From an uncultured bacterium (GTDB lineage Bacteria > Fidelibacterota > Marinisomatia > Marinisomatales > UBA1611): a DNA stretch of 64,000 nt. The stretch is taken from positions 256,001 to 320,000 of the forward strand of contig CBFIBM010000001.1 in the NCBI GenBank assembly GCA_965660855.1, written 5' to 3'. The stretch's first letter is position 1; every line of letters starts with the position of its first letter. Positions 1 through 15,916 of this stretch are shown in pieces. Both the position numbers and the translations under genes were made by a program. The notes under the pieces are model-generated. The model worked only from the letters and a program-made list of their open reading frames with translations, was not told the DNA's origin and did not search any database.

Positions 1-636
1 GTTATAGATCCTATCAAAGTTGAAATAATTAATTATCCTGAAAACCAAAAAGAAACTTTGAAAGCGATAAATAATCCTGAAAATGCAAATGCAGGAAAGA
101 GAGATATTCCATTTGGGAGAGAAATATTTATTGAGAGAAATGATTTTATTGAAAACCCACCCAAAAAGTTTTTTAGGTTAGGAGTTGGGAGAGAAGTAAG
201 ATTAAGATATGCATATTTTATTAAATGTGTAGATGTAGTAAAAGATGAAAATGGAAATATCCTCAAAATTAAATGTACATATGATCCTGAGACCTTAGGA
301 GGAAAAGCTCCTGATGGAAGAAAAGTAAAGGGAACAATTCATTGGGTAGATTGTAATAAATCAGTTGATGCTGAAATAAGATTATACGATCGACTTTTTT
401 CTATTGAAAATCCTAATAAAAAAGACAATTTTTTAGATGCATTAAATACAGATTCTTGTATAATTAAAGCAAACGCTAAATTAGAAATTTCAATGGAAAA
501 TCCAGAAGAGAAAACATACCAATTTGAAAGAAACGGTTATTTTAAACTAGATAAAAAATATTCAAATAAAGGGAAAAATGTTTTCATCAGAACAGTCTCG
601 CTTAGAGATTCATGGGCTAAATTAAAAAATAAATAA
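1..636 (+). CDS. glnS: Glutaminyl-tRNA synthetase, C-terminal anticodon-binding part (5' truncated by window edge)
   Basis: Frame is open from base 1. Motifs FFRLGVGREVRLRYAY, RKVKGTIHWV, AEIRLYDRLF, YQFERNGYF and RTVSLRDSW are typical of the GlnRS C-terminus. Confidence 0.93.
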   Translation, partial: VIDPIKVEIINYPENQKETLKAINNPENANAGKRDIPFGREIFIERNDFIENPPKKFFRLGVGREVRLRYAYFIKCVDVVKDENGNILKIKCTYDPETLGGKAPDGRKVKGTIHWVDCNKSVDAEIRLYDRLFSIENPNKKDNFLDALNTDSCIIKANAKLEISMENPEEKTYQFERNGYFKLDKKYSNKGKNVFIRTVSLRDSWAKLKNK

Positions 637-701: not shown

Positions 702-2021
702 ATGATTGAATTCTTTAGAATATCAAGATTAATAATGTTTTTATTAATAGTGCGGTTTATCTCAGCTGCTGAGCCCTACGTAATCATTTACTTATTACCG
801 TTTGATAATACTCAAAATGATCCTGCTTTAGAATGGATATCCCCAGGATTATCCGATATGACTAAGGAACAGATTAAAAGTATCTACGGAGTTAAAATAA
901 AATCAAAAGAAGATTTAGAGATTATAATGAATGACAGATCTTTAATGTTGCAGCAGCCACGAGGATCAAGGAATTTACTTTTGTTGGGGAAATATAACCG
1001 AAAGCTTGATAAAGTTCATGTTACGATTCAACTTGTTGATGTAGCTAATTGGGAAGAGTTAGGAAAAACACACACTACTGAAGTATATACCAGAATACCT
1101 TCATTGAATAAAAGCGTTGGTGCATCAGTTATCCAAATGATAGAACCTTTTTTGCCCAAACCTCCAAAAACAAAAATATCTCCATTCCCAATGTATGCTA
1201 AGCCAGAATTACAAGATCAAAGAAATCCTGTGTCAACCCAAGCAGAAAAACTTGCTTCGGGCCTAGACAAACAGATAGCAGAACTAGAAGCTTCAATGGA
1301 TTATTTATTAGGTGCAAGAGAACGAAGAAAAGAAAAACCAAAAGTAGATGTTCCCAGGTTTAAATCAGGTGAATGGACAATGGATTTTGATGTTGATCGT
1401 AAGCTTAAGGACAATCCTGAAAATAATTCTAATACACAAATGCTAAGCAATGTATTAGATCAGTTGTTGACTAATCCTTATGAAGTTGAATTACAACGTC
1501 CAGAATTTGACTATCAGAAGGATGACGAATTGTACATGACAGTTAGGTTTCCTATAATATACAGGTTAAAGGATAAGATCTTAAAAGATATGTTATCTAG
1601 TCTGCCTTATACTGGGCTGCAACAAGATGGATCACTTACTGTTTTCTATTTTGACAGAACAAAGTTTAATTTTCCACAAAATCATGTGGAGTCAATAGCA
1701 AATGGTGATTTCAGAATTATCCCTGTTCTGAGGATTTTTGATGAAAATAGAAATACTTTAATCTTGGTGGCTGATACTCCAGAAAAATACTGGCATTCTA
1801 GGTCAAGCGATAAGGTTTATTACGTACCCCAACATCAATTTTCACCTCTTATTGATTTTACGGTTGGCGGTTGGTCTATTCAAGTTGCTATGGAGACTGT
1901 AGAAATTCAAGCCGTTTATGAATTTATATTACCTGTAAGTGAAATGGAATCCCTCAGTAATATTAGTTTGAAATTCATAAAAGAGAATGATTTAAGAGCT
2001 TTTCTTGATCCAATCCTTTGA
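702..2021 (+). CDS. Exported hypothetical protein with TolB-N/CsgG-like N-terminal domain
   Basis: 439-aa ORF with a hydrophobic N-terminus. LLPFDNTQNDPALEWISPGLSDM resembles the 'VLPF.N......W...G..D' start of TolB_N/CsgG-like domains. Confidence 0.55.
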   Translation: MIEFFRISRLIMFLLIVRFISAAEPYVIIYLLPFDNTQNDPALEWISPGLSDMTKEQIKSIYGVKIKSKEDLEIIMNDRSLMLQQPRGSRNLLLLGKYNRKLDKVHVTIQLVDVANWEELGKTHTTEVYTRIPSLNKSVGASVIQMIEPFLPKPPKTKISPFPMYAKPELQDQRNPVSTQAEKLASGLDKQIAELEASMDYLLGARERRKEKPKVDVPRFKSGEWTMDFDVDRKLKDNPENNSNTQMLSNVLDQLLTNPYEVELQRPEFDYQKDDELYMTVRFPIIYRLKDKILKDMLSSLPYTGLQQDGSLTVFYFDRTKFNFPQNHVESIANGDFRIIPVLRIFDENRNTLILVADTPEKYWHSRSSDKVYYVPQHQFSPLIDFTVGGWSIQVAMETVEIQAVYEFILPVSEMESLSNISLKFIKENDLRAFLDPIL

Positions 2022-2097: not shown

Positions 2098-3231
2098 ATG
2101 AAAATACTTTTGTTAATTTTATTGTTAATGTCAAAAATTCAAGGACAGAAACTAGATGCAATTGACATTAATTTAAGAAACCTTAATGATGTCTTAGAAA
2201 CTGCACAAAGATCTTCTCAAAAAGTATTTGTTGACGATTTTACAGGCCTTTTGTGACCATACTGTCCCTCTGCGAGTTTCGCAATTTCAGAAATGTTAGA
2301 TTTATATCCAGAAACTTTGATTAGTGTCGAGTGGCACAGCTCAGGTTTTACTCCAGGAAATTCAGATTTTGATATACCAGCATATTCTACCAGGGCAGCG
2401 TTGTACAATGTAGGAGGTATTCCTCATACTCAATGGAATGGCGTTGTTTCAACTGTTGGTGGGTATCCAAATGGTAACTGGCAAGCCTTTATTGGAGAAT
2501 TTACAAATACCTATAATAGTATGGTTGGAGAAGAAACTCCATACAATATTGACATAAACGGTTACGCGGGTAATACTGTGAATTACGATGTTACGATTTC
2601 AATGGATTCTGATATGAGTAGCTCAAACCAGAAAGTTGATGTCTTCCTTGCTGAAGATAATATATGGTCTTATTGGAGCGGCGCAAGTTCATATCATAAT
2701 GCAAGATTTGTAGCAAGGGAATGGCTTTCTTCGGAGTATCTGAGTATCAGCAGTGCCGGCCAGAGTGAAACTTTTTCTGGTTCATTTGAATACAATGGAA
2801 ATTGGAATAGTGATAGCCTTTTTTTAATTGCTATTGTTCAAAACTATTCATCAAAACAAATTTATCAAGCCTCAAAAGTTAATATAAATGATATGGATCC
2901 GGATATTGATGATGATGGTATTTTGAATAATACTGATAATTGTATTGAAGATTACAATCCTCAGCAAGAAGATATTGATAACGATCAAATAGGTGATGCT
3001 TGCGATCCATGTAATAATTTAATTTATACTCTAGGCAACCCAAATGGTGATACAAATATCAATGGAGATCCCCTCATTGACATCATGGATGTCTTAACCC
3101 TTGTAGATTATCTTGCATTTGATCAAAATGAAAATATTTGCCAGGAACCAACTCTAAATATAAATCAAGATAATCATGTTAATATCGTTGATGTAATAAA
3201 TCTTGTTCAACTGATTCTTAATGGTGCATAA
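2098..3231 (+). CDS. Putative selenoprotein: Omp28-like thioredoxin-fold exported protein (UxxC) with TSP3-like repeats and C-terminal dockerin-like domain
   Basis: ATG 2098 gives MKILLLILLLMSKIQGQ...KVFVDDFTGLL-TGA(2254-2256)-PYCPSASFAISE, continuing in frame into the 2293..3231 ORF. The motif matches the Omp28-type 'v.vedFTg.wC.yCP', and 'YNVGGIPH' is the cis-Pro loop. The tail has DIDDDGILNNTDNC..CDPC and duplicated D/N-x-N-x-D..I.D dockerin loops. Confidence 0.85.
2257..2290 (+). promoter_or_regulatory. Candidate bacterial SECIS hairpin
   Basis: TGCGA(2271-2275)-GTT-TCGCA(2279-2283) is a perfect stem with a G-first loop 19 nt after the in-frame TGA. Confidence 0.65.
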
Positions 3232-3733
3232 TTTCTTAATAAAACCACTATTAAAATTTGTTTTTTTTAGTTCAGTTTTCTTTTCTTTTGCTCTTGCAAA
3301 AAAAGTTCCTGATTTAAATATTAAACTTATTGATGGATCAAAGACTACAATTCTAGAGCTTGCAGAAGATGGTCCATTATTAATTGATTTTTGGGCAACT
3401 TGGTGTGTTCCATGCAAAAAAGTGATGAAACATTTAAATCAATTTCATCTAAAATATGATGATCAAAATTTTAAGGTTTTAATGATTAATACAGATAGTC
3501 CTAGGTCTTTTGGAAAAGTAAAATCATTTATAAGATCTCAAGATTATAAATTTTATGTAGGGTTAGATCCTAACCAAATTACAGCCAGAAAACTTGATGG
3601 ATTAGTTATGCCTACTCTTATTTTAGTTGATGCAGGTGGGGAAATAACTTGGAGACATCAAGGTTACTCACCAGGTGATGAAAAAGAAATTGAAAATCAG
3701 ATTGAATTATTACTAAGTAAAAATACTAAATGA
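3221..3733 (+). CDS. TlpA/ResA-family thiol:disulfide oxidoreductase (exported)
   Basis: Signal peptide, LIDFWATWCVPCKK motif and MPTLILVD cis-Pro loop. Confidence 0.9.
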   Translation: MVHNFLIKPLLKFVFFSSVFFSFALAKKVPDLNIKLIDGSKTTILELAEDGPLLIDFWATWCVPCKKVMKHLNQFHLKYDDQNFKVLMINTDSPRSFGKVKSFIRSQDYKFYVGLDPNQITARKLDGLVMPTLILVDAGGEITWRHQGYSPGDEKEIENQIELLLSKNTK

Positions 3734-5682
3734 TATCAAAATTATTTAGGCTTAGTAAGCTTATTTTTCTTTTATGTTTTTTAACAGCTCAAGACTTTAG
3801 TTATAACGCCTCTATTAATTCAAGTTTTGGAAATAGTTATGATTTTTATTCTTTTTCAGAAAATAGGATAAACATCAACTTATTTTACAATAACTTTCAA
3901 AGTTGGGTTCAATATGAATATTCAAACCCACCCGACGTAGGTTTTCCAATTAATGATATAAGAAAATTTCGATTTGAATATCAAAATAAAGCTTTAAATA
4001 TTAAACTTGGCGACATTTATGAAATTTGGGGTAGGGGTTTAGTTCTTAATCAATTCGATGATCAACTTTTAGATTTTGACAATGGAATAAGAGGACTTTT
4101 TATAAATTATGGTAAAGGTCCGTTTAGTTTAACACACATAAATGGTAATGCAAATTTATGGAGTTACGGTCTTGATTTAAGAAAACCATATTATAATGAT
4201 AAGCATAATGTTATAGCAAACAGACTCCTTTATGAAAAAGGTTCCACAGTATTAGGCTTGACACATTTGATTTCTAGTGAAGAGCATTCCAAGTTAAATT
4301 TAGATGTAGTAGATGTGGGGCATACAATTAAGGGTATTTACGGTGATTATTCTTCTAATAATTTTGATATTTTTTTAGAATATGTAGATAAGGTCTCAAT
4401 CTCTAAAAATATAGTTTCAAATAATTTTCCAAATGATACCCTCAAAACAGGGTATGGTTTATATGGTAATTTGAATTTTTACTTAGGATCTTGGGGTCTA
4501 ACTACCGAGTATAAAAATTATTCTTTTGATTCGTTTATTAGTGATAAAACTCCAGATGATTATGGAAATCAAATTCAATTTCAACAAATGCCAACTTTAG
4601 GTAAGGAGCATAATTCAACGCTACTTGGTAGACTTAGCCATTATTATAATTTTAATGATGAAAGAGGTGTACAGTATGAGTTAAATGGATCATTTATAGG
4701 ACTGTCAATTAACCTTCAATATGCTCATTTAAGTAGGAATGAACAATGGTTTTCACAAAATGGCCCGTTTTCTTGGACAAATAAGATTTTGAGATCAAAA
4801 TTACCTAGTACAAAAATTAATACTAACCCATACTATGAAAACTTCCAAGAATTAAGTGGCTATCTGTTTGAAGATAAACTCTTTTTTAAGATTGGCAGGG
4901 GAGCAAATAAAGAAGTTTTAGGAACAAATTGGTTTTTTAATGGGGTTCAAACAGACACCTCTTATAGTTTGAGTTTTGCTTATGATACAACCTATTCGCC
5001 ATATGCTCCTGATTATCCAATAATTACGGTTGATAGCCTATATGACACATCTTCTGTTAGTTATAATATAAAAGCAGAGAATTGGAGAGAGAGTCAATCT
5101 TTTACGATTCCTGTTGAATTAAATTATACTATGTCAAGTGGATACTCCTTCGGAGTTGGTTTTCAGTACCAGGAGAGAACTTTAAATGAAAAAAGAAAAG
5201 GAAATTCTCATTCATATAATGTTGGAAATTCAAAATGGAATTTAGTTAATCCAGATGATTCAGACTATAAATCTACTTTAATTATATCTCAACTCTCTAT
5301 AAATGGTAAACCTAGGAAAATCCAACATAATCGTCTATTATCATTTACTTTAAGTAAAGCGCAGAAATGGTCAGTTACTATTACACAAGATTGGACTGAT
5401 GCATATGAGGTCCAATCATCTGATCCTTATTATAATCCATTAGAGGCAATAGTATATGGTGATTTAAAATATTTTACTGGGAAAAGAAATAATGTTTCTC
5501 CTCCTTCATTTATTCAAAATAAATGGGTTTCGGCAGAAGTATCATATAACATTAATTCATCTCAAAAAGTTTCAATTTTTTATGGATCTATTCAAGGTGG
5601 CTTATTCTGTAATAATGGAATATGCAGAATTATACCTGCATTCAATGATGGTATAAAAGTTGGCTATTATTTCAGTTTATAA
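3730..5682 (+). CDS. DUF6029-like outer-membrane beta-barrel protein with C-terminal CxxGxC motif (copy 1)
   Basis: Signal peptide, GDIYEIWGRGLVLN, QQMPTLGKEH, and C-terminal GGLFCNNGICRIIPAFNDG..YYFSL. ATGA-coupled to the TlpA gene. Family recalled from motif, not searched. Confidence 0.7.
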   Translation: MISKLFRLSKLIFLLCFLTAQDFSYNASINSSFGNSYDFYSFSENRININLFYNNFQSWVQYEYSNPPDVGFPINDIRKFRFEYQNKALNIKLGDIYEIWGRGLVLNQFDDQLLDFDNGIRGLFINYGKGPFSLTHINGNANLWSYGLDLRKPYYNDKHNVIANRLLYEKGSTVLGLTHLISSEEHSKLNLDVVDVGHTIKGIYGDYSSNNFDIFLEYVDKVSISKNIVSNNFPNDTLKTGYGLYGNLNFYLGSWGLTTEYKNYSFDSFISDKTPDDYGNQIQFQQMPTLGKEHNSTLLGRLSHYYNFNDERGVQYELNGSFIGLSINLQYAHLSRNEQWFSQNGPFSWTNKILRSKLPSTKINTNPYYENFQELSGYLFEDKLFFKIGRGANKEVLGTNWFFNGVQTDTSYSLSFAYDTTYSPYAPDYPIITVDSLYDTSSVSYNIKAENWRESQSFTIPVELNYTMSSGYSFGVGFQYQERTLNEKRKGNSHSYNVGNSKWNLVNPDDSDYKSTLIISQLSINGKPRKIQHNRLLSFTLSKAQKWSVTITQDWTDAYEVQSSDPYYNPLEAIVYGDLKYFTGKRNNVSPPSFIQNKWVSAEVSYNINSSQKVSIFYGSIQGGLFCNNGICRIIPAFNDGIKVGYYFSL

Positions 5683-5760: not shown

Positions 5761-6645
5761 GTGAAGAATTATATCTTAAGCATTCCTTTAGCAAAATTAA
5801 TTTTTATTCTATCTATTATTTTATCAAATACTATTTATCCTCAAATAGATATAGGTTCAATATCTCCTAATTTCACTGCTCCTGTATGCGCAAACGGTGA
5901 TCTCGAGTTATTCAACTTGTACCAACAAACTAATGGCAGTTTTAATGGTGGTGATTATAAAGTAGTATGGATCAATTTATTTACTTCTTGGTGACCAAGT
6001 TGCCAAGTGGAGGCTCCACTATCAGAAGAAATATGGCAAGAATATTTAAGCGGAGGGGAAGAAAAATTAGTTGTTATGGCAGCTGGGTTTGATTGGCATC
6101 AGCCTTATAGCTGTGAAGAATGGTCAACTGCATTTGGTATAACATACCTAATGGTAGATGATACAAATAATGAAGCATGGAATATTTATGGTGATGGCTA
6201 TATTCCGCATAATGTAGTGTTAGATCATAACATGCAGGTTCTATATACAAGTTCAGGATTTAACTCAAATGAAATAAAAGATGCAATCGATCTCGGCCTA
6301 TCTTATGTTCCAAGAGATTTAGATTTAGATGGAATTAATGATAACATAGATAACTGTGATGATATTTATAATCCTAATCAAGAGGATGTTGATGTAGATG
6401 GCATCGGTGATTTATGTGATAATTGCGATAACTATAATGTATTTATTTCTGGAAATACTGATGGTGGTTTAGTAAATGGAATTCCCATTTTAGATATTTT
6501 TGATGTGTTGAACCTAGTTGATATTGTTTTATTGGATGAATCTGGTACCTGTAGATCTGATATCTCAGATTTGAATTCAGATAATAATATTAATATTATT
6601 GATGTGATATTTCTTGTACAGGGGTTGTTAAATGGTGAATTTTAA
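5761..6645 (+). CDS. Putative selenoprotein: exported redoxin (UxxC) + TSP3-like repeats + dockerin-like domain
   Basis: ORFs 5761..5994 and 6007..6645 are in the same frame and joined by a single TGA (5992-5994), reading INLFTSW-U-PSCQVEAP. Paralogues at 13932 and 15002 read FTSWCGFC and FTSWCAYC. Confidence 0.9.
5995..6039 (+). promoter_or_regulatory. Candidate bacterial SECIS hairpin
   Basis: AGTGGA(6006-6011)-GGC-TCCACT(6015-6020) stem with the loop 17 nt after the TGA. Possible lower stem TTGCCA(6000-6005)/TGGCAA(6034-6039). Confidence 0.7.
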
Positions 6646-6757: not shown

Positions 6758-9700
6758 ATGAATATTTTTAAAAAAATGACCTTCTTCCTTCTGTTTTTTT
6801 CCTTAATTAAAGGTCAAGGTGATTATTCATTTAAAAATATTTCAGTAGAAGATGGACTTGCTGAAAGTACTGTAAAGATAATCTATGAGTCAAAACAAGG
6901 TTTTTTATTTTTTGGAACTGAAAATGGTCTTGATATTTTTGATGGTTATAAATTTAAAAACTATCATATGGATTCATTCGATAATGAATCAATTCTTGGA
7001 AATAAAGTTTCAGCTATTTACGAATCAAGTAATAATTTGATCTGGGTAGGAAGTGAGCTAGGATTTAGTTCATTTAATCCTTCAACACAAAAATTCAAAA
7101 GACCGTCATTAAGTAATAATAATATTACAAATCCAGAAAAAATTACAGAAGATGAAAGTGGGAAAATCTGGATTAAAGAGGCTCAATCTAGCCGTTTATT
7201 TAAATATGATTTTAATAAAGATATTCTTGAATGTATTTCATGTGATCAAATGAGCATCCTTTTTAATCAAACCATAAATATTCTACACAAATCGAATAAA
7301 GGTGCTTTGTGGATTGGTACTGATAAAGGTCTTTATTTTTATGATATTAATGATAAATCTATCAGGCCGATTGAATCAAAATATTCCTTAAGCATTAATG
7401 AGCCATATTATATTACATCAATTGAAAATGGATCAGATTCCATTTTATGGATAGGAACAAAACAAGGTCTTATCAAAATTGAAGAAAATAATAAGAGTCA
7501 AATTAAGATTTTTAAGAATTCGGAGGTTGAAAATTCTATCGTTTCTAACAAGATAAATGATATTAAATGGGATAATCTTAGGAATGAGTTATGGATTTCT
7601 ACTGTGGATGGAATTTCAAAATATTCACCTGAACTAAATTCTTTTTCTAACATTCAAGTAGGTCCGTTTGCTAATAGCATAATAGAAAATGATGTTACGG
7701 ATATTTTGATTGCTGAAAAGTCTGGAACTTTATGGTTTAAAACCAGAAACCGCTTTGGAATAAATAGTTTTAAAGCAACATTCAATGAATTTGAGGGGCC
7801 GGATACTTCAATTATGCATTTTGAACATGATCCTATTGATCCATTTTCTATTGCTGACAATGATATAACAAATTTTATTGAGGATAGAGCTGGCCACGTC
7901 TGGATAGGAACACGACAAAATGGGATAAGCTTTTATTCATTTTTGAAGCCTAAATTCTCATTGCTTGAATATGATCAAGAAAATGAATGGGGCCTCAAAA
8001 GTAATAAGATTTATTCAATTACAACCGATTCTTATGGTATGATGTGGGTTGCAACAGGGTTTGGATTAGAAAATATTTCTTCGGATGGTATTAGAGATTT
8101 TGAATTTGAAAAATCTTTTATTGAATCCAACCATGTCATGGATTTAGAGTTAGTAAATGATCAATATTTATGGGCGGCAACTGAAAATGGAATTCTTAGA
8201 ATTGATGTATTATCAGAAGAAATTATTCGATTTAACACCTCTCAAAATGTTAATAAAAAAAGATTAATTTCTGATAATTTTATTAGAGACCTGCTTATAA
8301 CAAAAAATGGTTCTATTTGGGCGGGGACAAAATCAGGAATTACAATAATAGATACAGTTGATTTAAGTGCTGTCAGTTTTAGCTCAGATTTTACTGCTAG
8401 GGTATTATACCAAGACGAAAGTGAAAATATATGGATAGGAACAGATTATAATGGATTATATCAAATACCATATGAAATTATTTCTGATCTAAAAAAAGAA
8501 GATATTTTTGAAGTAGAGGGTCATGTTTTTGACTCAGAGTTTTCTGATGGTCTATCATCTTCACAAATAACCTCTATAACTCAAGATACGACTGGTGTTT
8601 TATGGGTTGGTACAGCTAGTGGTTTAAATAAGTATATTGAAAGTGAAGATACCTTCTATCATTATTTCATGAAAGATGGTCTACCTAGTAACTATATTAC
8701 GGGTGTTATTGTAGATCAAAGTAATAACCTGTGGATAAGCTCTAAGAACGGTATTTCTTTCTTTAATCAGAAAGACTCTTCTTTTATAAATTATGGGGTT
8801 TCCGATGGAATAGGGAATATTGATTTTCATCAACATTCTTTTGAAAAAAGTATTGATGGAAACATATATTTTGGTGGGCCAAAAGGAATAACTAAAGTAA
8901 ATCCCTCAAATTTACAATATAATGAATACAAACCTCCTTGTTCAATTCTACGCATTAAAAAAACACTTTATGATGGATCTATTACTGAAGTTTTTCCTCA
9001 AAAAAGTTCGAAACTAGAAATTCAAAAGATTAATATAAATCATAAAGTAAAATCATTCTCAATCGATTTTGTTGCTCTGAATTATCATAAAACTATAAAG
9101 AATGAATATAGATATAAACTTCAACCTTTTGATAGGAATTGGGTAGAATCGGGGAATATTAAATTTGCATCTTACAATAATTTAGGTAGAGGAGAGTATA
9201 CCTTTTTTGTGCAAGGATCTAACGATGATGGATTATGGAGTCAGTCTGCTGTTTTAGATTTTAAATTTATTCCTCATCCTCTTTTAAGTTATGGTGCTTT
9301 TGGAGTCTATCTTGCACTAATTATATTTGGTGTATACTGGCTAGTTAAACAAAGAATATTAAAACAGCAATCTGAGGCTGATGAAAAGAGAAGAGCCGAA
9401 GAATTAGAGCAAGCTCGGGAATTCCAGATGTCACTAATACCTCAAAATCCTCCTTCTATCAGCGGATTTGAATTTGCTTTGCATATGAAAACATCTACGG
9501 AGGTTGGTGGTGATTATTATGATTTTTTTCCTCAAAAAAATAATGTTCTTTATGTAGTTTGTGGTGACGCCACTGGGCACGGTTTAAATGCTGGTATGAT
9601 GGTTTCAATTACAAAAGCAGGATTATTCGGATCAGACTTTAGTAATCCAGGTATTACAACTACTAGGTTAAATCAAACAATAAAAGCTATTGATCTTGGA

Positions 9701-10105
9701 ACAACAAGGATGTCTTTGAATATGGCTAAGTTTGAAAATGAATCCTTTGAGTTTACATCAGCTGGTATGCCTCCTGCATATTTATTTCGTGGTGAAACAA
9801 AGGTTGTAGAGGAAATTTTAATTCCTGGTTTGCCTCTGGGGTCTATGAAAAATGCTACATTTGATTCTGAGATATTTGAATTTAAAATAGATGATGCGTT
9901 AATCTTAATTTCAGATGGACTTCCTGAATGTGTTGACCATAAAGATGAAATGTTAGATTATGATGCAGTAAAGAACTGTATTGAAAAAAATGGGCATAAA
10001 TCAGCAAATGGCATTAAAGATGCCTTGATAAAATTGGGTGATGACTGGATGGACGGTCTAATGAATGATGATGATATAACATTGGTAATTATAAAGAGGA
10101 AATAG
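6758..10105 (+). CDS. Membrane sensor: two-component-type beta-propeller repeats + Y_Y_Y domain + TM + SpoIIE/PP2C Ser/Thr phosphatase
   Basis: Repeated 'LWIGT..GL' propeller motifs, YRYKL..FD..W/ASYNNL.RGEYTF (Y_Y_Y), a TM near residue 850, then EVGGDYYDF, GDATGHG, LISDGL and DDDITLV PP2C motifs. Confidence 0.9.
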   Translation: MNIFKKMTFFLLFFSLIKGQGDYSFKNISVEDGLAESTVKIIYESKQGFLFFGTENGLDIFDGYKFKNYHMDSFDNESILGNKVSAIYESSNNLIWVGSELGFSSFNPSTQKFKRPSLSNNNITNPEKITEDESGKIWIKEAQSSRLFKYDFNKDILECISCDQMSILFNQTINILHKSNKGALWIGTDKGLYFYDINDKSIRPIESKYSLSINEPYYITSIENGSDSILWIGTKQGLIKIEENNKSQIKIFKNSEVENSIVSNKINDIKWDNLRNELWISTVDGISKYSPELNSFSNIQVGPFANSIIENDVTDILIAEKSGTLWFKTRNRFGINSFKATFNEFEGPDTSIMHFEHDPIDPFSIADNDITNFIEDRAGHVWIGTRQNGISFYSFLKPKFSLLEYDQENEWGLKSNKIYSITTDSYGMMWVATGFGLENISSDGIRDFEFEKSFIESNHVMDLELVNDQYLWAATENGILRIDVLSEEIIRFNTSQNVNKKRLISDNFIRDLLITKNGSIWAGTKSGITIIDTVDLSAVSFSSDFTARVLYQDESENIWIGTDYNGLYQIPYEIISDLKKEDIFEVEGHVFDSEFSDGLSSSQITSITQDTTGVLWVGTASGLNKYIESEDTFYHYFMKDGLPSNYITGVIVDQSNNLWISSKNGISFFNQKDSSFINYGVSDGIGNIDFHQHSFEKSIDGNIYFGGPKGITKVNPSNLQYNEYKPPCSILRIKKTLYDGSITEVFPQKSSKLEIQKININHKVKSFSIDFVALNYHKTIKNEYRYKLQPFDRNWVESGNIKFASYNNLGRGEYTFFVQGSNDDGLWSQSAVLDFKFIPHPLLSYGAFGVYLALIIFGVYWLVKQRILKQQSEADEKRRAEELEQAREFQMSLIPQNPPSISGFEFALHMKTSTEVGGDYYDFFPQKNNVLYVVCGDATGHGLNAGMMVSITKAGLFGSDFSNPGITTTRLNQTIKAIDLGTTRMSLNMAKFENESFEFTSAGMPPAYLFRGETKVVEEILIPGLPLGSMKNATFDSEIFEFKIDDALILISDGLPECVDHKDEMLDYDAVKNCIEKNGHKSANGIKDALIKLGDDWMDGLMNDDDITLVIIKRK

Positions 10106-10116
10106 GTTAAACTCTC

Positions 10117-10683
10117 ATGATAAAAAATACAATTAGAATAATCTATTTGCTTATGTTTCTTTCACTTGGATATTCTCAAGAAAAAATACCAAACTTGAGA
10201 CTTAAAATGTTGAATGGAAAATATGCAAAAGTAAATGATTTTTTAAAAGATGGACCAATGATTATAGATTTTTGGGCTACTTGGTGTGAGCCATGTAAGA
10301 AACAGATGAAATATCTTAATATATTTAATAATCATTTTAAGGAAACTGGATTTAAAGTACTTGCTGTTAACACTGATACACCTAAAAGTATGAGTAAGGT
10401 TAAATCTTATGTCAGAACAAAAAAGTTTGAGTTTGACGTTGCAGTGGACCCGAATAGTCAGGTTAAAAAGAAAATGAAGGTTTTGCAAATGCCTACAACT
10501 ATTTTAGTTGATAAAACTGGACAAATAGTTTTTAGACATCAAGGATATTTACCTGGCGATGAACATGATATTCTTCAAGCTATTTATGGTTTAATGGATA
10601 AAAACAATACTAGTTATGAAAAACTTGATTTGAATAAGAACAATAAAAAACAAATTAAATCCGGTGCTGAAGTTGATTTTTAA
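10117..10683 (+). CDS. TlpA/ResA-family thiol:disulfide oxidoreductase (copy 2)
   Basis: Signal peptide, IIDFWATWCEPCKK and MPTTILVD. Clear paralogue of 3221..3733. Confidence 0.9.
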   Translation: MIKNTIRIIYLLMFLSLGYSQEKIPNLRLKMLNGKYAKVNDFLKDGPMIIDFWATWCEPCKKQMKYLNIFNNHFKETGFKVLAVNTDTPKSMSKVKSYVRTKKFEFDVAVDPNSQVKKKMKVLQMPTTILVDKTGQIVFRHQGYLPGDEHDILQAIYGLMDKNNTSYEKLDLNKNNKKQIKSGAEVDF

Positions 10684-12946
10684 TAAGCAAATAATTGTAT
10701 CATTCATATTGATACTTAGTAATTCAGATTTATTTTCCCAAATAACAGCTGGTGGGAACTCTATTCTAAAATTTGGCGAGAGTAAAAATGAATTTCACTA
10801 TTCAGAGGTTTTGCTGAATATGAACTTATCAAATGATTATTTGGAGACTTGGTTTCAATTCGAATACAGCAAACCACCTGAGATTGGGATGAGTATTAAT
10901 GGTCTGAGAAAATTTAGGATTGACTATTCTGATGGCCCTTTCGAATTATCTGTTGGAGATATATATAAAATTTGGGGGAGGGGGTTAATATTGAACCAGT
11001 TTGATGATCAGGATGTAAATCTTGATAATGGTTATAGAGGATTAAGTTTCAGTATAATAAAAGATAACTATACCATTGATTTAATATCTGGAATTTCAAA
11101 TATACATAGAATTAGTCAAGATTACTGGCAAAATATAGATCAAGAATCAAGAAAGCCAAATCATTTATCAAAACATTCTATGTTTGGTAGTGATTTAGAG
11201 TTTTTTCAAGGACCTTTTTCTCTAGGTTTATCCTTTCTTCAAAGTAGAGAGAATCATCCCATCAATAATCCGATCACGATGATGGCAGATAGTATTAATG
11301 TAATTCATCGAATAAATGGTTTAAGAGCCGGATATGAAGGCGGGCGTCTCGCCTCCTACTTAGAATTATCTGGAAAAAATACGCTATTATCTCAATCCGA
11401 AAGTCAAATATATAAGGAAAATTTTAATCCTTATAATGGCTTCAGTCTTTTTGGAAATATTAATTATTATTTTCAAAGTCAGCTTCTAGACGGATGGTCA
11501 TTAACAATGGAGTATAAAAACTACAATACAACAAAATTAAATACATCAGATAAAGACAATTTTGTTAAAAATTATGATATGAATTTAATTTTTACTCAAC
11601 CCCCGACTGTTTTAAGGGAACATAGCAGTGTATTTTTAGCTAGACTTATTCCTCAGGTAAATTTCAGCGATGAAGTAGGTTATCAATTTTCTCTTGTTGG
11701 TCCTATTATGGGGATAGGGTATTTTACTCTCAACTATCAAGCCGCAAGTAGAACAAACTTATGGGGTAAAACATACCCAGATACTGTAAATGCTATATTA
11801 TCTACTAAATGGGAAAGTGATAGTGCAGTTACCGTATTGCCATTCAGTGAAAAATCCGGACTGCCATACAATGAACTTTATCTTGAAATGGAAGGTTACA
11901 TAAAAAATATTAGGTATCAATTTGGCTTTGGTATCACAAACAAAATACCTGAATATCATTCGTCGTATAATAGTGGAAAGAATGGTGTCTGGGATAATGG
12001 TGAAGCGTTTGATGATTTAAATGGCAATAATATTTATGATATTGGAGAAAATTTTACTGATCTTTACAGTATAGTAAATGAAAAAATTGATAATAAAACT
12101 GTTACAGCCATTACAATACCTTCTCTTCTAAATTATAATTTAGGAAATGGGTGGAGTATTGATTTAAAATATGAATTTCAAAAGATTAAAAGTGGTACAA
12201 AATATTATAATTCATTGTCCTCTGATGAAGTATTCTATGATAGTAATGGAAATGGTGTTTGGGATATTGCAGAGTTATTTGAAGATAGTAATGGTGATGG
12301 TATTTGGAACCAAGCTGAAGAGACATGGTATGATTTATGGCAAAGTGGTTTAATACCCGATGAACAATTATACTACTATGATACTGACGGCGATGGTTTA
12401 TTTTCGGAGGGAGAATATTTTACTGATGCTGATGGAAATGGCATGTGGAATTCATCAGAAAACTTAATTGATGAAGATGGTGATGGAATATGGGATGATT
12501 CAGAGTATTTGGAGGATCTAAATAATGATGGAGTCTGGACAAAAAGTGGAGTGTATGAAGATAGGTATCAATCTAATTTTTATTCAAATGATTCAAAAAG
12601 TGGGTTGAGTATTCCTGAAGATTTTCAAAATAATCATCTGATATCACTCGGAATAGGAAAATCGCCTTATTGGTCACTATCTTTAACGGTTGAATCAAGT
12701 TCAACCTATGAATATGGTCCATTAAAAAATAGTGTTGTTAATCCTCTAGAGAGTTTCTTAGGTAATATTATTGATTTAAATAATAAGTGGATTGCTTTAG
12801 AATTTATGGTGAATATAAATTCAAATACTAGGCTCGATTTAATGTACGGTACGCAAAGGGGAGGGATTATTTGCAGTAATGGAATTTGTAGGTATGTTGA
12901 ACCTTTCGATGATGGATTTAAATTAGCGTTATCAACAGTATTTTAA
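10664..12946 (+). CDS. DUF6029-like outer-membrane protein (copy 2) with inserted acidic DxxGxGxWD repeats
   Basis: Shares GDIYKIWGRGLILNQFDDQ, QPPTVLREH and C-terminal GGIICSNGICRYVEPFDDG with 3730..5682, and ends in Phe. Confidence 0.7.
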   Translation: MLKLIFNKQIIVSFILILSNSDLFSQITAGGNSILKFGESKNEFHYSEVLLNMNLSNDYLETWFQFEYSKPPEIGMSINGLRKFRIDYSDGPFELSVGDIYKIWGRGLILNQFDDQDVNLDNGYRGLSFSIIKDNYTIDLISGISNIHRISQDYWQNIDQESRKPNHLSKHSMFGSDLEFFQGPFSLGLSFLQSRENHPINNPITMMADSINVIHRINGLRAGYEGGRLASYLELSGKNTLLSQSESQIYKENFNPYNGFSLFGNINYYFQSQLLDGWSLTMEYKNYNTTKLNTSDKDNFVKNYDMNLIFTQPPTVLREHSSVFLARLIPQVNFSDEVGYQFSLVGPIMGIGYFTLNYQAASRTNLWGKTYPDTVNAILSTKWESDSAVTVLPFSEKSGLPYNELYLEMEGYIKNIRYQFGFGITNKIPEYHSSYNSGKNGVWDNGEAFDDLNGNNIYDIGENFTDLYSIVNEKIDNKTVTAITIPSLLNYNLGNGWSIDLKYEFQKIKSGTKYYNSLSSDEVFYDSNGNGVWDIAELFEDSNGDGIWNQAEETWYDLWQSGLIPDEQLYYYDTDGDGLFSEGEYFTDADGNGMWNSSENLIDEDGDGIWDDSEYLEDLNNDGVWTKSGVYEDRYQSNFYSNDSKSGLSIPEDFQNNHLISLGIGKSPYWSLSLTVESSSTYEYGPLKNSVVNPLESFLGNIIDLNNKWIALEFMVNINSNTRLDLMYGTQRGGIICSNGICRYVEPFDDGFKLALSTVF
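12238..12545 (+). repeat. Coding repeat: ~6 acidic D-x-[ND]-G-[DN]-G-x-W/F units (putative Ca-binding loops)
   Basis: DSNGNGVWD, DSNGDGIWN, DTDGDGLFS, DADGNGMWN, DEDGDGIWD, DLNNDGVWT. Confidence 0.8.
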
Positions 12947-13015: not shown

Positions 13016-13909
13016 ATGAAAAAATTCATTTTAAAGTTTTTTATTTTATTTTCTATAACATTTCCCTCATTTGTTATATGTCAGGGTCAAATTATACAAG
13101 ATTTTTCCTACCCAATTTGTGCTAATGGTGATGGTGAAACAGTTTTAAATTTTTATGAATCATTCAACGGATCAGTAAACAATTGTGAGTATAAAGTAGT
13201 TCTTGCTACACTTTTCACCTCCTGGTGACCATCCTGTATGACGGAGGCTCCGGTTCTAGAAGAAATATTTAACACCTACAAAGATCAAGGATTAGAAGTT
13301 GTTGCATTTGGAGCCGACTGGTATCCTGATGGACCCTATACTTGTGAAGGGTGGGATCAACAATTTAATCTTTCTTACCCAATACTTGATTTTGAGACAG
13401 GATTAGAAAATTGGTATTGGGAGTCAGCTCCGTATGATTTATACCAGCCCGAGTTAGGTTGGGGGTTACCTTTTAATGTAATAATAAATCATGAGATGGA
13501 AGTTTTATGGGGTGCAGCAGCCAACTTTGAGGGTGATGTAATGGCTGAGGCTATAGGTGTTATTGAATCAGCTCTCCAAGCGTTGAATGAAGAATTTCCC
13601 GATGGTCCAGGGGATGATGATGGAGATGGAATAGCAAATGGTTGTGATCCTTGTCCAGAATCTCATTTACACCATCCTGGAAATTTTGATTTTTCTCAGG
13701 TTTATTCACATTTTGATAATGGTGCAGTCTTTGTACCATCTGTAGATATTTTTGATTTAATACTATTTTCAGATTATATAATGGATGGTGGCTACCTAAC
13801 TGATTGTATCTTAGAGGCGCACGATATTACCGGGGATGGTTATGTCAATCCTTTCGATGTTATAGCATTAGCTCAATTAATTCTTGGAAATGATTGGGGT
13901 TTAAATTAG
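13016..13909 (+). CDS. Putative selenoprotein: exported redoxin (UxxC) + short TSP3-like motif + dockerin-like domain
   Basis: ORFs 13016..13228 and 13238..13909 are in the same frame and joined by one TGA (13226-13228), reading ATLFTSW-U-PSCMTEAP. Homologous throughout to 5761..6645. Confidence 0.9.
13229..13260 (+). promoter_or_regulatory. Candidate bacterial SECIS hairpin
   Basis: CGGA(13242-13245)-GGC-TCCG(13249-13252), with the same GGC loop and 17-nt spacing as at 6006-6020. Confidence 0.65.
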
Positions 13910-13931: not shown

Positions 13932-14855
13932 ATGAAATTATTTTATCATATTTTTCAGAAGAGTATTATTATTTTTGTTTTAATTTATACTTCTACCACT
14001 TCAGAAATGCAAGGTCAGGTAGCTGTAGGTGACACTATAAACCCTTCTCAATTAAGTTTACCAATTTGCGCTAATCAAGAACCCTTTGGCCCTTCAGAGC
14101 AATTTTTTGATATTTCGATTTATAATAACCCAGATCAAGATTCACAATCAAAAGTAATTTTACTTTCTATTTTTACATCATGGTGCGGATTTTGTCAAAC
14201 TGAAGCTACACACTTACAAGATTTACATACTGAATTTGCCGATGATGGATTGTTAGTTGTTTCAGCTGGAGGAGATTGGGGTTTTCCATATGATTGTGAG
14301 GGTTGGTCTAATGAATTTGATTTAAGTTATCCAATATTAGATTTTATGAATCCCTTTAATCCTAATTGGGGAGAAGCGCCATTAATGACCTATTTAGGAG
14401 TAGCTGCAATACCCTTTAATGTAATTATAGATCATAGGAACATAGTCTCAAATATTATAATAGGATATAATGAGGAAATATTGAACCTAGCTATTGAAGA
14501 TGCTCTTGAAGCAATGATTCAAGATAGTGATGGTGATGGAATTAATTCTGAAGCAGATAACTGTCCATCAATATTCAACCCAGGTCAATCTGATTTTGAC
14601 GGTGATGGCATAGGAGATGTCTGCGATGCTTGTGATAATCTTAATATATTTGTTAACGGAAATCTTAATGGTACATTAAATCTTGATCAAGAACCAACCA
14701 TTGATATTCTAGACTTATTGTTACTGGCCGACTTCCTTGAGGGATTACCAGATCAAAATATCTGTCATGAGGCTGCCTCTGATATTAATGAGGATTCTAA
14801 TATAAATTTACTTGATGTATTTTCACTTGCCTATCAAATTACTGGGCAAAATTAA
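13932..14855 (+). CDS. Exported redoxin (CxxC, Cys paralogue of the selenoproteins) + TSP3-like repeats + dockerin-like domain
   Basis: Signal peptide, PICAN, IFTSWCGFCQTEA, IPFNVIID, DSDGDGINSEADNCP..CDAC and a dockerin-like tail. Confidence 0.88.
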   Translation: MKLFYHIFQKSIIIFVLIYTSTTSEMQGQVAVGDTINPSQLSLPICANQEPFGPSEQFFDISIYNNPDQDSQSKVILLSIFTSWCGFCQTEATHLQDLHTEFADDGLLVVSAGGDWGFPYDCEGWSNEFDLSYPILDFMNPFNPNWGEAPLMTYLGVAAIPFNVIIDHRNIVSNIIIGYNEEILNLAIEDALEAMIQDSDGDGINSEADNCPSIFNPGQSDFDGDGIGDVCDACDNLNIFVNGNLNGTLNLDQEPTIDILDLLLLADFLEGLPDQNICHEAASDINEDSNINLLDVFSLAYQITGQN

Positions 14856-15001: not shown

Positions 15002-15916
15002 TTGTTAAAAAAAAATTTTAAAAAAATAAATTACCTCAAAGTATTTACAATACTTTTATTGCAATCATTATTATATAGTCAAATTGCAATTGGTGATACT
15101 GTCTTTAATCTGCAATTACCAATATGTGCTAATTCTGATCCTGATATTCACGAACAGCAATATTTTGATATAAATGATTATAATGGTTTTCCCGAAAGTA
15201 CTATCAGCCCAAGGGTAATTCTTCTTGCAATCTTTACTTCATGGTGTGCGTATTGTCAAACTGAAGCGTTCCTTTTAGAAGATTTACATGAGGAGTATAT
15301 TGATGATGGATTATTGGTCCTTTCTGCTGGTGGTGATTGGGGCTTCCCATATGATTGTAGTGGTTGGGCAAATTCATTTAATTTAACTCATCCAATATTA
15401 AATTTTATGACAACTAATGTGGAAAGTTGGGAAGATGCTCAATTGATAAACTATTTGGGAGTTGGTATTGTACCACATGCTGTTGTAATTGATCATCGAA
15501 ATATTCTTTCAAACACCATTGTGGGTTATAATCCTAATGCTTTGAATCAAGCTGTTGAAAGTGCGCTTGAAACAATGGCTCAAGACCTTGATGGTGATGG
15601 AGTTTTATTTGATGATGATAATTGTCCTTCAATTCATAACCCAGAACAAATAGATATTGACAATGATAACCTTGGTGATGAATGTGATTTATGTGATAAT
15701 CTTAATAATTTTGTAATTGGCAATCTAAATGGTACACTAGATCAATTTCAGCAAGCAACCATTGATATTTTTGATTTATTGTTATTAACTGATTTTTTAG
15801 ATAATTCTTACGAGAATAATGTATGCTCTAACGCTGTATCCGATATTAATGGTGATAATTCTATAGATCTAATTGACGTATTTACGCTTGCTTATATTAT
15901 TTCAGAACAAAATTAA
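15002..15916 (+). CDS. Exported redoxin (CxxC) + TSP3-like repeats + dockerin-like domain; tandem paralogue of 13932..14855
   Basis: TTG start, PICAN, IFTSWCAYCQTEA, shared SAGGDWGFPYDC, DLDGDGVLFDDDNCP..CDLC. Confidence 0.88.
   Translation: MLKKNFKKINYLKVFTILLLQSLLYSQIAIGDTVFNLQLPICANSDPDIHEQQYFDINDYNGFPESTISPRVILLAIFTSWCAYCQTEAFLLEDLHEEYIDDGLLVLSAGGDWGFPYDCSGWANSFNLTHPILNFMTTNVESWEDAQLINYLGVGIVPHAVVIDHRNILSNTIVGYNPNALNQAVESALETMAQDLDGDGVLFDDDNCPSIHNPEQIDIDNDNLGDECDLCDNLNNFVIGNLNGTLDQFQQATIDIFDLLLLTDFLDNSYENNVCSNAVSDINGDNSIDLIDVFTLAYIISEQN

Follow-up and report, generated by a model that had tools for sequence, protein, structure and literature searches.

A probable Omp28-related selenoprotein of the known NF045500/GOS_C family, shortened by plain open reading frame calling in an uncultured bacterium

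A selenoprotein gene of a known family

The DNA considered here, referred to as the window, is a stretch of 64,000 nucleotides of contig CBFIBM010000001.1 from the genome of an uncultured marine bacterium of Marinimicrobia/Neomarinimicrobiota (assembly GCA_965660855.1). At 2098 to 3231 it holds what is very probably a real selenoprotein gene, in which the in-frame TGA at 2254-2256 encodes selenocysteine (Sec, U); an initial annotation had read it rightly, and the gene is a member of the known family NF045500/GOS_C. Under translation table 11 the region appears as two open reading frames (ORFs) in the same frame, one of 52 aa (2098..2256, beginning MKILLLILLLMSKIQGQ...) that terminates at the TGA and one of 312 aa (2293..3231). 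Once the TGA is taken as U, a single open frame runs on from the ATG at 2098 to the TAA at 3229-3231 and gives 377 residues, with U53 in the motif FTGLL-U-PYC. The initial annotation had claimed that a start at 2293 leaves out both the signal peptide and the active site, and that the TGA stands at the first position of a redox motif. Both claims hold, since the 312-aa form lacks the hydrophobic leader and the redox motif, and U is aligned at that position in all full-length relatives with Cys in distant homologues. The 377-aa protein with leader and Sec active site should therefore replace the 312-aa fragment as the true product.

Against the NCBIfam model named 'Omp28-related selenoprotein' (NF045500), the read-through protein scores 562.6 bits (E 5.1e-169), well over the cut-off of 200. 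Its residues 6-375 align with profile positions 4-377 of 377, and the match is thus end to end; a search of the whole genome recovers it at 556.1 bits with one TGA inside it. A 2026 review equates NF045500 with 'hypothetical protein GOS_C', a UxxC selenoprotein family of thioredoxin (Trx)-like fold predicted in 2008 (PMC13188914). The original paper counts GOS_C among seven new selenoprotein families from Global Ocean Sampling data and gives it a Trx-like fold (Zhang and Gladyshev, 2008; PMC2398784). Like other members, the window gene is of marine origin and has a hairpin 3' of the UGA, and its product has a single Sec in a UxxC motif and a predicted Trx-like fold. It shows every family feature that could be tested, no difference sets it apart, and it is a member. 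Neither the family nor its Sec or Trx-like nature is new, since all of this has already been published and curated. The initial annotation called the gene hidden, which is true for plain ORF callers but not for the family, curated as NF045500 and published as GOS_C in 2008; the gene is an annotation correction and not a discovery.

A family predicted in 2008 is still widely mis-called in metagenome-derived protein sets. Among the best 120 database hits listed, 119 cover 86% of the query or less, and the 312-aa form starting at ATG 2293 dominates public protein collections. The sole full-length entry among those 120 (P0014) has W at the TGA column and is a case of TGA translated as Trp, as under genetic code 4. 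Our literature search, which did not extend to supplementary files, found no paper placing GOS_C in Marinimicrobia/Neomarinimicrobiota; SAR406 genomes are named in a table of PMC5029168, where GOS_C is unmentioned. Nor did that search find a paper stating the lineage, the covarying hairpin, the likeness to HBP35 or the linkage to DUF6029 described below. These four points are small additions to a known family, and offer a start for asking how selenium is used outside the cytoplasm in abundant ocean bacteria.

Evidence for selenocysteine

The genome (2.09 Mb, 81 contigs, 84% complete) carries the machinery for Sec decoding. Its tRNA-Sec, with anticodon tca, scores 63.3 bits against a cut-off of 47, and selB (303.4 bits; G000:C16:35003-36850), selA (494.2 bits) and selD (388.9 bits) all exceed their curated cut-offs. 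The selD gene (G000:C19:7427-8353) itself holds one in-frame TGA, and its product is probably a Sec-containing selenophosphate synthetase.

To find relatives, NF045500 was run against 201 sampled genomes of the phylum. At an E of 0.001 or less, 101 of these match the profile, mostly through a shared tail, and 12 have a match over the cut-off. Exactly one in-frame TGA lies in 19 of the 20 matches over the cut-off; the twentieth (G177) starts at profile position 53, at a sequence end. The 19 full-length sequences come from 11 genomes and comprise the window gene, the only one in its genome, six paralogues in G137 (four within ~7.5 kb of one contig), four in G193 and one in each of eight others. 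All 19 have U at the same column, in F-[TS]-G-x-x-U-[PT]-[YT]-C. In twelve distant matches this column holds Cys in eight (GTGTWCxYC in L051-L054, FTGTWCGWC, FTSSTCGPC and FTSTTCGPC) and Sec in four (FTATWUGYC, FTEAWUPYC, FTATWUPYC and FTNANUPSC). Both TGA and Cys, for which the initial annotation had suggested a search among homologues, are thus found at the column of codon 53. Four loci (L051-L054) and L034, mentioned below, fall outside the motif filter of the printed alignment, and their motifs were read from raw translations.

The coding region continues upstream of the TGA. The 26 codons 5' of it (ASRSSQKVFVEDFTGL) are conserved as protein in the relatives. Nonsynonymous divergence (dN) over these codons is 0.28-0.58 and lies below synonymous divergence (dS) in all 19 computable pairs among the 25 closest of 60 comparisons (the remaining 6 of the 25 yielded no dS), rough figures given that synonymous sites are saturated. 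These values point to the purifying selection that the initial annotation expected upstream of the TGA. A hydrophobic leader also stands at the start of all 17 aligned relatives. Residues 1-52 contain no Cys, and the leader therefore has no lipobox; it looks like a substrate of signal peptidase I, as far as its letters allow us to infer.

Sequencing error, the other objection raised at the outset, was checked against contigs of public sequencing runs. Of the 24 runs listed, 20 contain the stretch; in 19 the share of its sampled words is one half or more, and six are on record as RNA. A 720-nt contig from an RNA library spans both the ATG and the TGA (2092-2811) and is unchanged at 2254-2256. 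Contigs of two other RNA libraries begin at 2227 and 2232; with fewer than 31 letters 5' of the TGA, they are not counted as bridging it. A contig from a DNA run covers the whole stretch and may be the source of this assembly. In all, 2254-2256 is unaltered in contigs of three RNA libraries and one DNA run. Upstream of the TGA, the RNA-library contigs differ from the window at two places, 2125 (T>C) and 2217 (T>C), and neither difference alters an amino acid in the proposed frame.

Further selenoproteins appear around the family. On NF045500, a sister group with TSTT-U-[GP][PS]-C (NETUPSC in L034) reaches 171-188 bits and narrowly misses the cut-off of 200; naming in the style of the NCBI pipeline PGAP may therefore overlook its members as selenoproteins. 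The group consists of L030-L038 (G200, G063, G185, G111, G067, G012, G170, G186 and G127), and its profile matches begin only at ~74-138. The one member that was scanned, L030, ends in a type IX secretion system (T9SS) sorting domain. More distant sub-cut-off matches, to profile positions ~37-280 (e.g. G039:C22, G051:C11, G003:C36 and G197:C26), often contain one in-frame TGA; those with a TGA sit in open frames of 800-900 aa in other orders and classes of the phylum. Four of these TGA-bearing matches were read and all show F-T-x-x-x-U-x-x-C; the same Sec thioredoxin-Omp28 unit is thus present in larger multidomain proteins too. As for the expanded genomes, the paralogues of G137 lie on contigs C52 and C59 and those of G193 on C57, C61, C67 and C84.

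A candidate SECIS element

In bacteria, a selenocysteine insertion sequence (SECIS) is usually recognised as a hairpin whose loop lies 16-37 nt after the UGA, with a G among the first loop bases. The 19 genes align gap-free over 84 nt around the TGA, and RNAalifold keeps a single helix of five pairs in this alignment, with standard pairs in all 95 of its 95 cells. Its stem begins 14 nt after the TGA and its GUU loop 20 nt after the UGA, and the element at 2271-2283 is thus a hairpin just 3' of the UGA with a G in the apical loop. Two pairs show compensatory changes across the 19 sequences, namely pair 27-39 (CG 14, UA 3, UG 2) and pair 30-36 (GC 11, AU 8), and pair 29-37 is CG in 15 and UG in 4. 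An added sixth pair (26-40) is mostly unpaired; with it included, covariation and the paired share beat 500 of 500 shuffles and all slid registers.

The same pattern extends to other public genomes. GTDB representative genomes were searched with a degenerate DNA pattern that contained the TGA and left columns 27, 30 and 39 free, which gave 59 stretches with 61 distinct sites. Pair 30-36 is GC in 45 and AU in 16, broken in none. Pair 27-39 is paired in 60 of the 61 (CG 43, UA 13, UG 2, GC 1, AU 1, with AG in one), and the loop reads GUU at 60 sites and GUC at one. Where the hairpin varies, it does so at the third letters of codons for Ser, Ala, Phe and Ala, and the protein therefore leaves the coupling unexplained. 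By their titles the family belongs to Marinimicrobia/Neomarinimicrobiota, since 26 of the 59 stretches are titled Candidatus Marinimicrobia or Neomarinimicrobiota, one 'Ignavibacteria' and one 'FCB group'. Expansion into paralogues is also seen in several of the 59.

Domain architecture and structural likeness

The features of the gene and of its neighbours are collected in Table 1. An AlphaFold model built from an 18-sequence alignment has a mean predicted local distance difference test score (pLDDT) of 83.5 and a predicted TM score of 0.67. In it, U53-x-x-C56 sits between a strand (43-49) and a helix (56-69), and the invariant G107-I108-P109 is presumably the Pro loop of thioredoxins. The predicted model thus shows both traits expected of a thioredoxin-superfamily member, since its CxxC-type motif follows strand 1 where helix 1 begins and its Pro loop is conserved. 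Thioredoxins align with residues 40-146 of the model (Foldseek E ~6e-4 to 1e-3; VIA-align Z 7.1-8.4). With the UxxC selenoproteins of Trx fold (Trx-like, peroxiredoxin-like, Redoxin and TlpA-like) the protein shares a Sec that comes first in UxxC at the start of helix 1. It differs from them in that it hardly matches thioredoxin-type Pfam/NCBIfam models (E 0.004-0.02) and in its fusion to an Omp28-type sandwich.

Table 1. Coordinates of the selenoprotein gene, its parts and the neighbouring genes in the window
Feature	Position	Strand	Basis
Complete selenoprotein gene, 377 codons + TAA	2098..3231	+	NF045500 562.6 bits; TGA 2254-2256 = Sec
Probable Sec-type (general secretory) signal peptide, residues 1-16 (MKILLLILLLMSKIQG)	2098..2145	+	Read from sequence; cleavage site inferred
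Thioredoxin-fold domain, ~residues 40-146	2215..2535	+	AlphaFold model; thioredoxins Z 7.1-8.4
Selenocysteine codon U53	2254..2256	+	TGA column kept in 19/19 full-length sequences; Cys in distant homologues
U-P-Y-C redox motif	2254..2265	+	Position 53 (U), C56 and P57 invariant in 18-sequence alignment
Candidate bacterial SECIS, 5-bp stem 2271-2275/2279-2283, GUU loop 2276-2278	2271..2283	+	RNAalifold, 19 sequences
Invariant loop G107-I108-P109	2416-2424	+	18-sequence alignment
Omp28-type beta-sandwich, ~residues 147-266	2536..2895	+	Pfam Omp28 sub-threshold; 2r2c, 5y1a alignments
Thrombospondin type 3 (TSP3; calcium-binding) repeats, ~residues 267-323	2896..3066	+	phmmer against PDB
C-terminal module of two loop-helix units, dockerin-like, ~residues 312-377	3031..3228	+	Model helices 329-341, 349-353, 363-374
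Glu/Gln-tRNA synthetase C-terminus	1-636		Window gene order
439-aa protein, no family	702-2021		Window gene order
TlpA/ResA-like protein with WCVPC	3221-3733		Window gene order
DUF6029 protein, 650 aa, Pfam 87.3 bits	3730-5682		Window gene order
Sec Redoxin-like protein (W-U-PSC), TSP3 + dockerin-like tail	5761-6645		TGA 5992-5994
Sensor with SpoIIE phosphatase domain	6758-10105		Window gene order
Second TlpA-like gene	10117-10683		Window gene order
760-aa ORF resembling 3730-5682 by eye	10664-12946		Window gene order
Third Sec gene (W-U-PSC), Redoxin/TlpA-like, TSP3 + dockerin-like tail	13016-13909		TGA 13226-13228
Cys paralogue SW-C-GFC, same tail as the Sec Redoxin-like genes	13932-14855		Window gene order
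Cys paralogue SW-C-AYC, same tail as the Sec Redoxin-like genes	15002-15916		Window gene order

The middle domain resembles Omp28. Pfam Omp28 (PF11551) gives 27.3 bits over residues 133-264, below its cut-off of 34.9, NF033782 gives 44.9 bits against a cut-off of 150, and weak Omp28-type profile matches extend over residues 37-264. The beta-sandwich aligns with the Omp28 domain of PDB 2r2c (Foldseek E 3.4e-4, VIA-align Z 9.5). Membership of the Omp28 outer-membrane lipoprotein family proper (PF11551, NF033782) was considered and ruled out, as both profiles stay below cut-off and the leader has no lipobox Cys.

By a wide margin the closest structure is Porphyromonas gingivalis HBP35 (PDB 5y1a), with Foldseek E 3.5e-12 and VIA-align Z 23.8 at a root-mean-square deviation of 3.0 over 220 residues, model 36-267 against chain 10-254, at 16% sequence identity. 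A phmmer search of PDB sequences did not find HBP35, which was found by fold comparison only. Agrobacterium tumefaciens AGR_C_4864 (PDB 2axo) also aligns (Foldseek E 1.8e-9, VIA-align Z 19.6). HBP35 is described by its authors as a hemin-binding protein with thioredoxin activity and motif and a surface-attachment domain (PMC2907840). The two proteins share a two-domain unit of thioredoxin fold and beta-sandwich, and the window protein is probably exported, as HBP35 is. HBP35 has its surface-attachment domain at the C-terminus, and longer members of the present family end in a T9SS sorting domain; in the window protein, by comparison, TSP3 repeats lead into a dockerin-like tail, and a T9SS domain is absent. 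It also has Sec in its motif.

The initial annotation had described an Omp28-TSP3-dockerin protein, of which the Omp28-like middle domain and the TSP3 repeats stand and the dockerin part is weakly supported. Over residues 267-323, phmmer aligns thrombospondin-2 in four stretches (E 1.8e-10) and COMP (E 2e-10); Pfam TSP_3 (PF02412) reaches 16.6 bits, below its cut-off of 25, yet it matches 13 of 18 family members. Pfam Dockerin_1 (PF00404) has no match on window residues 255-377 at E up to 10. It matches 4 of 18 family members (best E 6e-12), and on the homologous segment three of five relatives score 14.1-20.6 bits, under the cut-off of 22.9. Profile positions ~240-377 of NF045500 also match other ORFs of the window's genome, which share this C-terminal module. 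The tails differ among members: some have the dockerin-like part alone, and in others a further domain and a sorting domain of the T9SS accompany it. The longer members (592-597 aa) have the extra domain and a T9SS type A sorting domain, and in one 374-aa member the T9SS domain replaces the tail. On the longer relatives TIGR04183 (T9SS) scores 35.6-42.5 bits against a cut-off of 23, and in the window's genome 78 T9SS sorting domains exceed that cut-off.

Proposed synthesis and function

We propose that the genome's own SelA, SelB, SelD and tRNA-Sec would decode TGA 2254-2256 as selenocysteine, probably directed by the conserved 5-bp hairpin with its GUU loop 14 nt after the codon. The Sec would open the U-x-x-C motif at the start of the first thioredoxin-fold helix, and the thioredoxin domain would pack on the Omp28-type beta-sandwich as in P. 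gingivalis HBP35, followed by TSP3-type repeats and the dockerin-like tail. Outside the cytoplasm, such a protein may work as a selenol/thiol-disulfide oxidoreductase that its tail keeps at the cell surface. We give about an even chance to this role, that of an exported and probably surface-held selenol/thiol oxidoreductase.

A wider proposal, which we regard as speculative and rather doubtful, is that the gene belongs to an undescribed, conserved, selenium-dependent redox system at the cell surface of Marinimicrobia. Its parts would be the HBP35-like Sec protein, the DUF6029 protein (possibly an outer-membrane barrel), the TlpA-like oxidoreductases, and the Sec and Cys Redoxin paralogues that share the TSP3 and dockerin-like tail. 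The tail of the short forms would dock to cohesin-like modules of T9SS-anchored proteins, for which G000:C2 offers a candidate; in the longer relatives the dockerin-like module, further domain and T9SS domain would stand on one chain. A cohesin search of the window's genome gave one borderline match, at 22.2 bits (25.1 with neighbours) against a cut-off of 24.1. Prediction of a complex between this cohesin-like domain (residues 1030-1165 of the ORF in L122) and the window tail (305-377) scored 0.18 and 0.16 against a mark of 0.32, in runs without controls, which speaks neither for nor against binding. The C-terminal part of the 1257-aa protein encoded by the candidate gene (G000:C2:65806-69579; L122 107-3880) consists of a dockerin-like segment, this borderline cohesin-like domain and a T9SS sorting domain. 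In the longer selenoprotein relatives, the domain that separates the dockerin-like segment from the T9SS domain resembles the cohesin-like domain by eye, with no Cohesin match listed.

Alternative explanations

Several points weigh against the reading of the gene as set out here. Selenium insertion at U53 is deduced indirectly, from frame, family, conserved column, hairpin and Sec machinery; RNA-library contigs may include some DNA and reveal neither the ends nor the strand of a transcript; and saturation makes the upstream dN/dS values rough. The candidate SECIS hairpin is small, and its stem lies within the codons of the conserved residues S-A-S-F-A. Folded as a single sequence, the region does not outdo its shuffled versions (z 0.33 for 2248-2320, z -0.76 for 2254-2300), and the case for the hairpin rests on the alignment. 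The two covarying pairs largely split two clades, and may therefore reflect few independent events. Rfam, run over the whole window at gathering thresholds, returned one tRNA only and no SECIS family. The fold is a prediction from 18 sequences, with pLDDT below 50 for residues 13-38. Against this background the TGA might be a true stop, the product being the 312-aa protein from ATG 2293 and the 52-codon upstream ORF separate or non-coding. The public collections hold just that form in 119 of the 120 best hits listed, and other TGAs of the window do serve as ordinary stops, but the shorter protein would be without leader and redox motif, the upstream stretch is conserved as protein in all relatives with dN below dS, distant homologues have Cys in place of the TGA, the genome has the full Sec machinery, and the curated model spans the TGA. 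We consider a true stop very improbable. An incomplete assembly could hold a sequencing or assembly error, or a pseudogene, yet the same TGA recurs in 19 of 19 sequences from 11 genomes and at 61 sites in other public genomes, contigs of three RNA libraries and one DNA run are identical there, and at least half of the stretch's sampled words occur in 19 runs from several studies; an error or a pseudogene deserves almost no credence. Hardly any weight falls either on a genome-wide use of TGA for Trp or Gly (code 4 or 25), which would put a residue other than Sec at the site and for which the W in P0014 could be cited. TGA ends ORFs 702..2021 and 3221..3733 in the ordinary way, the latter overlapping the next ATG at 3730 (ATGA, 3730-3733). 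Throughout the window, just three TGAs lie deep in long open frames and before xxC (2254-2256, 5992-5994 and 13226-13228); these are on the + strand, as are the called genes of the region, and the remaining listed TGAs are near frame ends or in frames on the strand opposite called genes. The genome also has tRNA-Sec, selA, selB and selD, and homologues have Cys at the column and not Trp or Gly.

With the TGA read as Sec, the function of the product is less certain, and the proposed oxidoreductase role draws on motif and fold. The main alternative, by analogy, is that Sec is inserted but that the protein mainly binds a ligand such as heme or metal at the surface, as HBP35 may do, instead of exchanging disulfides. 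HBP35 is the best structural match (the next unrelated rows are at Z 8), and its authors describe hemin binding along with a thioredoxin motif, thioredoxin activity and a surface-attachment domain (PMC2907840); the 650-aa DUF6029 neighbour is conserved in 9 of 11 loci. The same fold need not mean the same ligand, and sequence identity to HBP35 is 16%. A UxxC-type motif together with the invariant G-I-P loop marks redox-active thioredoxin folds, and the neighbours include TlpA/ResA-like thiol-disulfide oxidoreductases. We see ligand binding as an unlikely main function, and prefer the oxidoreductase.

Gene neighbourhood

The DUF6029 protein is a conserved neighbour, and a homologue adjoins the Omp28-related selenoprotein gene in 9 of 11 loci of other genomes (L018-L028). 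The ORF at 702-2021 (439 aa), which has no Pfam or NCBIfam match, begins with a hydrophobic leader and lies directly 5' of the selenoprotein gene, a position kept in the two closest genomes (L018 and L019; 70-74% identity).

Two other Sec genes in the window belong to a different family, Redoxin/TlpA-like with W-U-PSC, and Sec use at the locus thus spans two protein families, as first proposed. Both (5761-6645 and 13016-13909) have the motif LFTSW-U-PSC. A GC-rich hairpin follows the TGA at 5992, and the U is kept in relatives L039-L042. Two Cys paralogues come right after 13016-13909, and therefore Sec/Cys pairs stand adjacent in one locus. The unit of a TlpA-like gene, a large DUF6029-type protein and a Sec redoxin seems to occur twice in the window, the second large ORF being likened to the first by eye.

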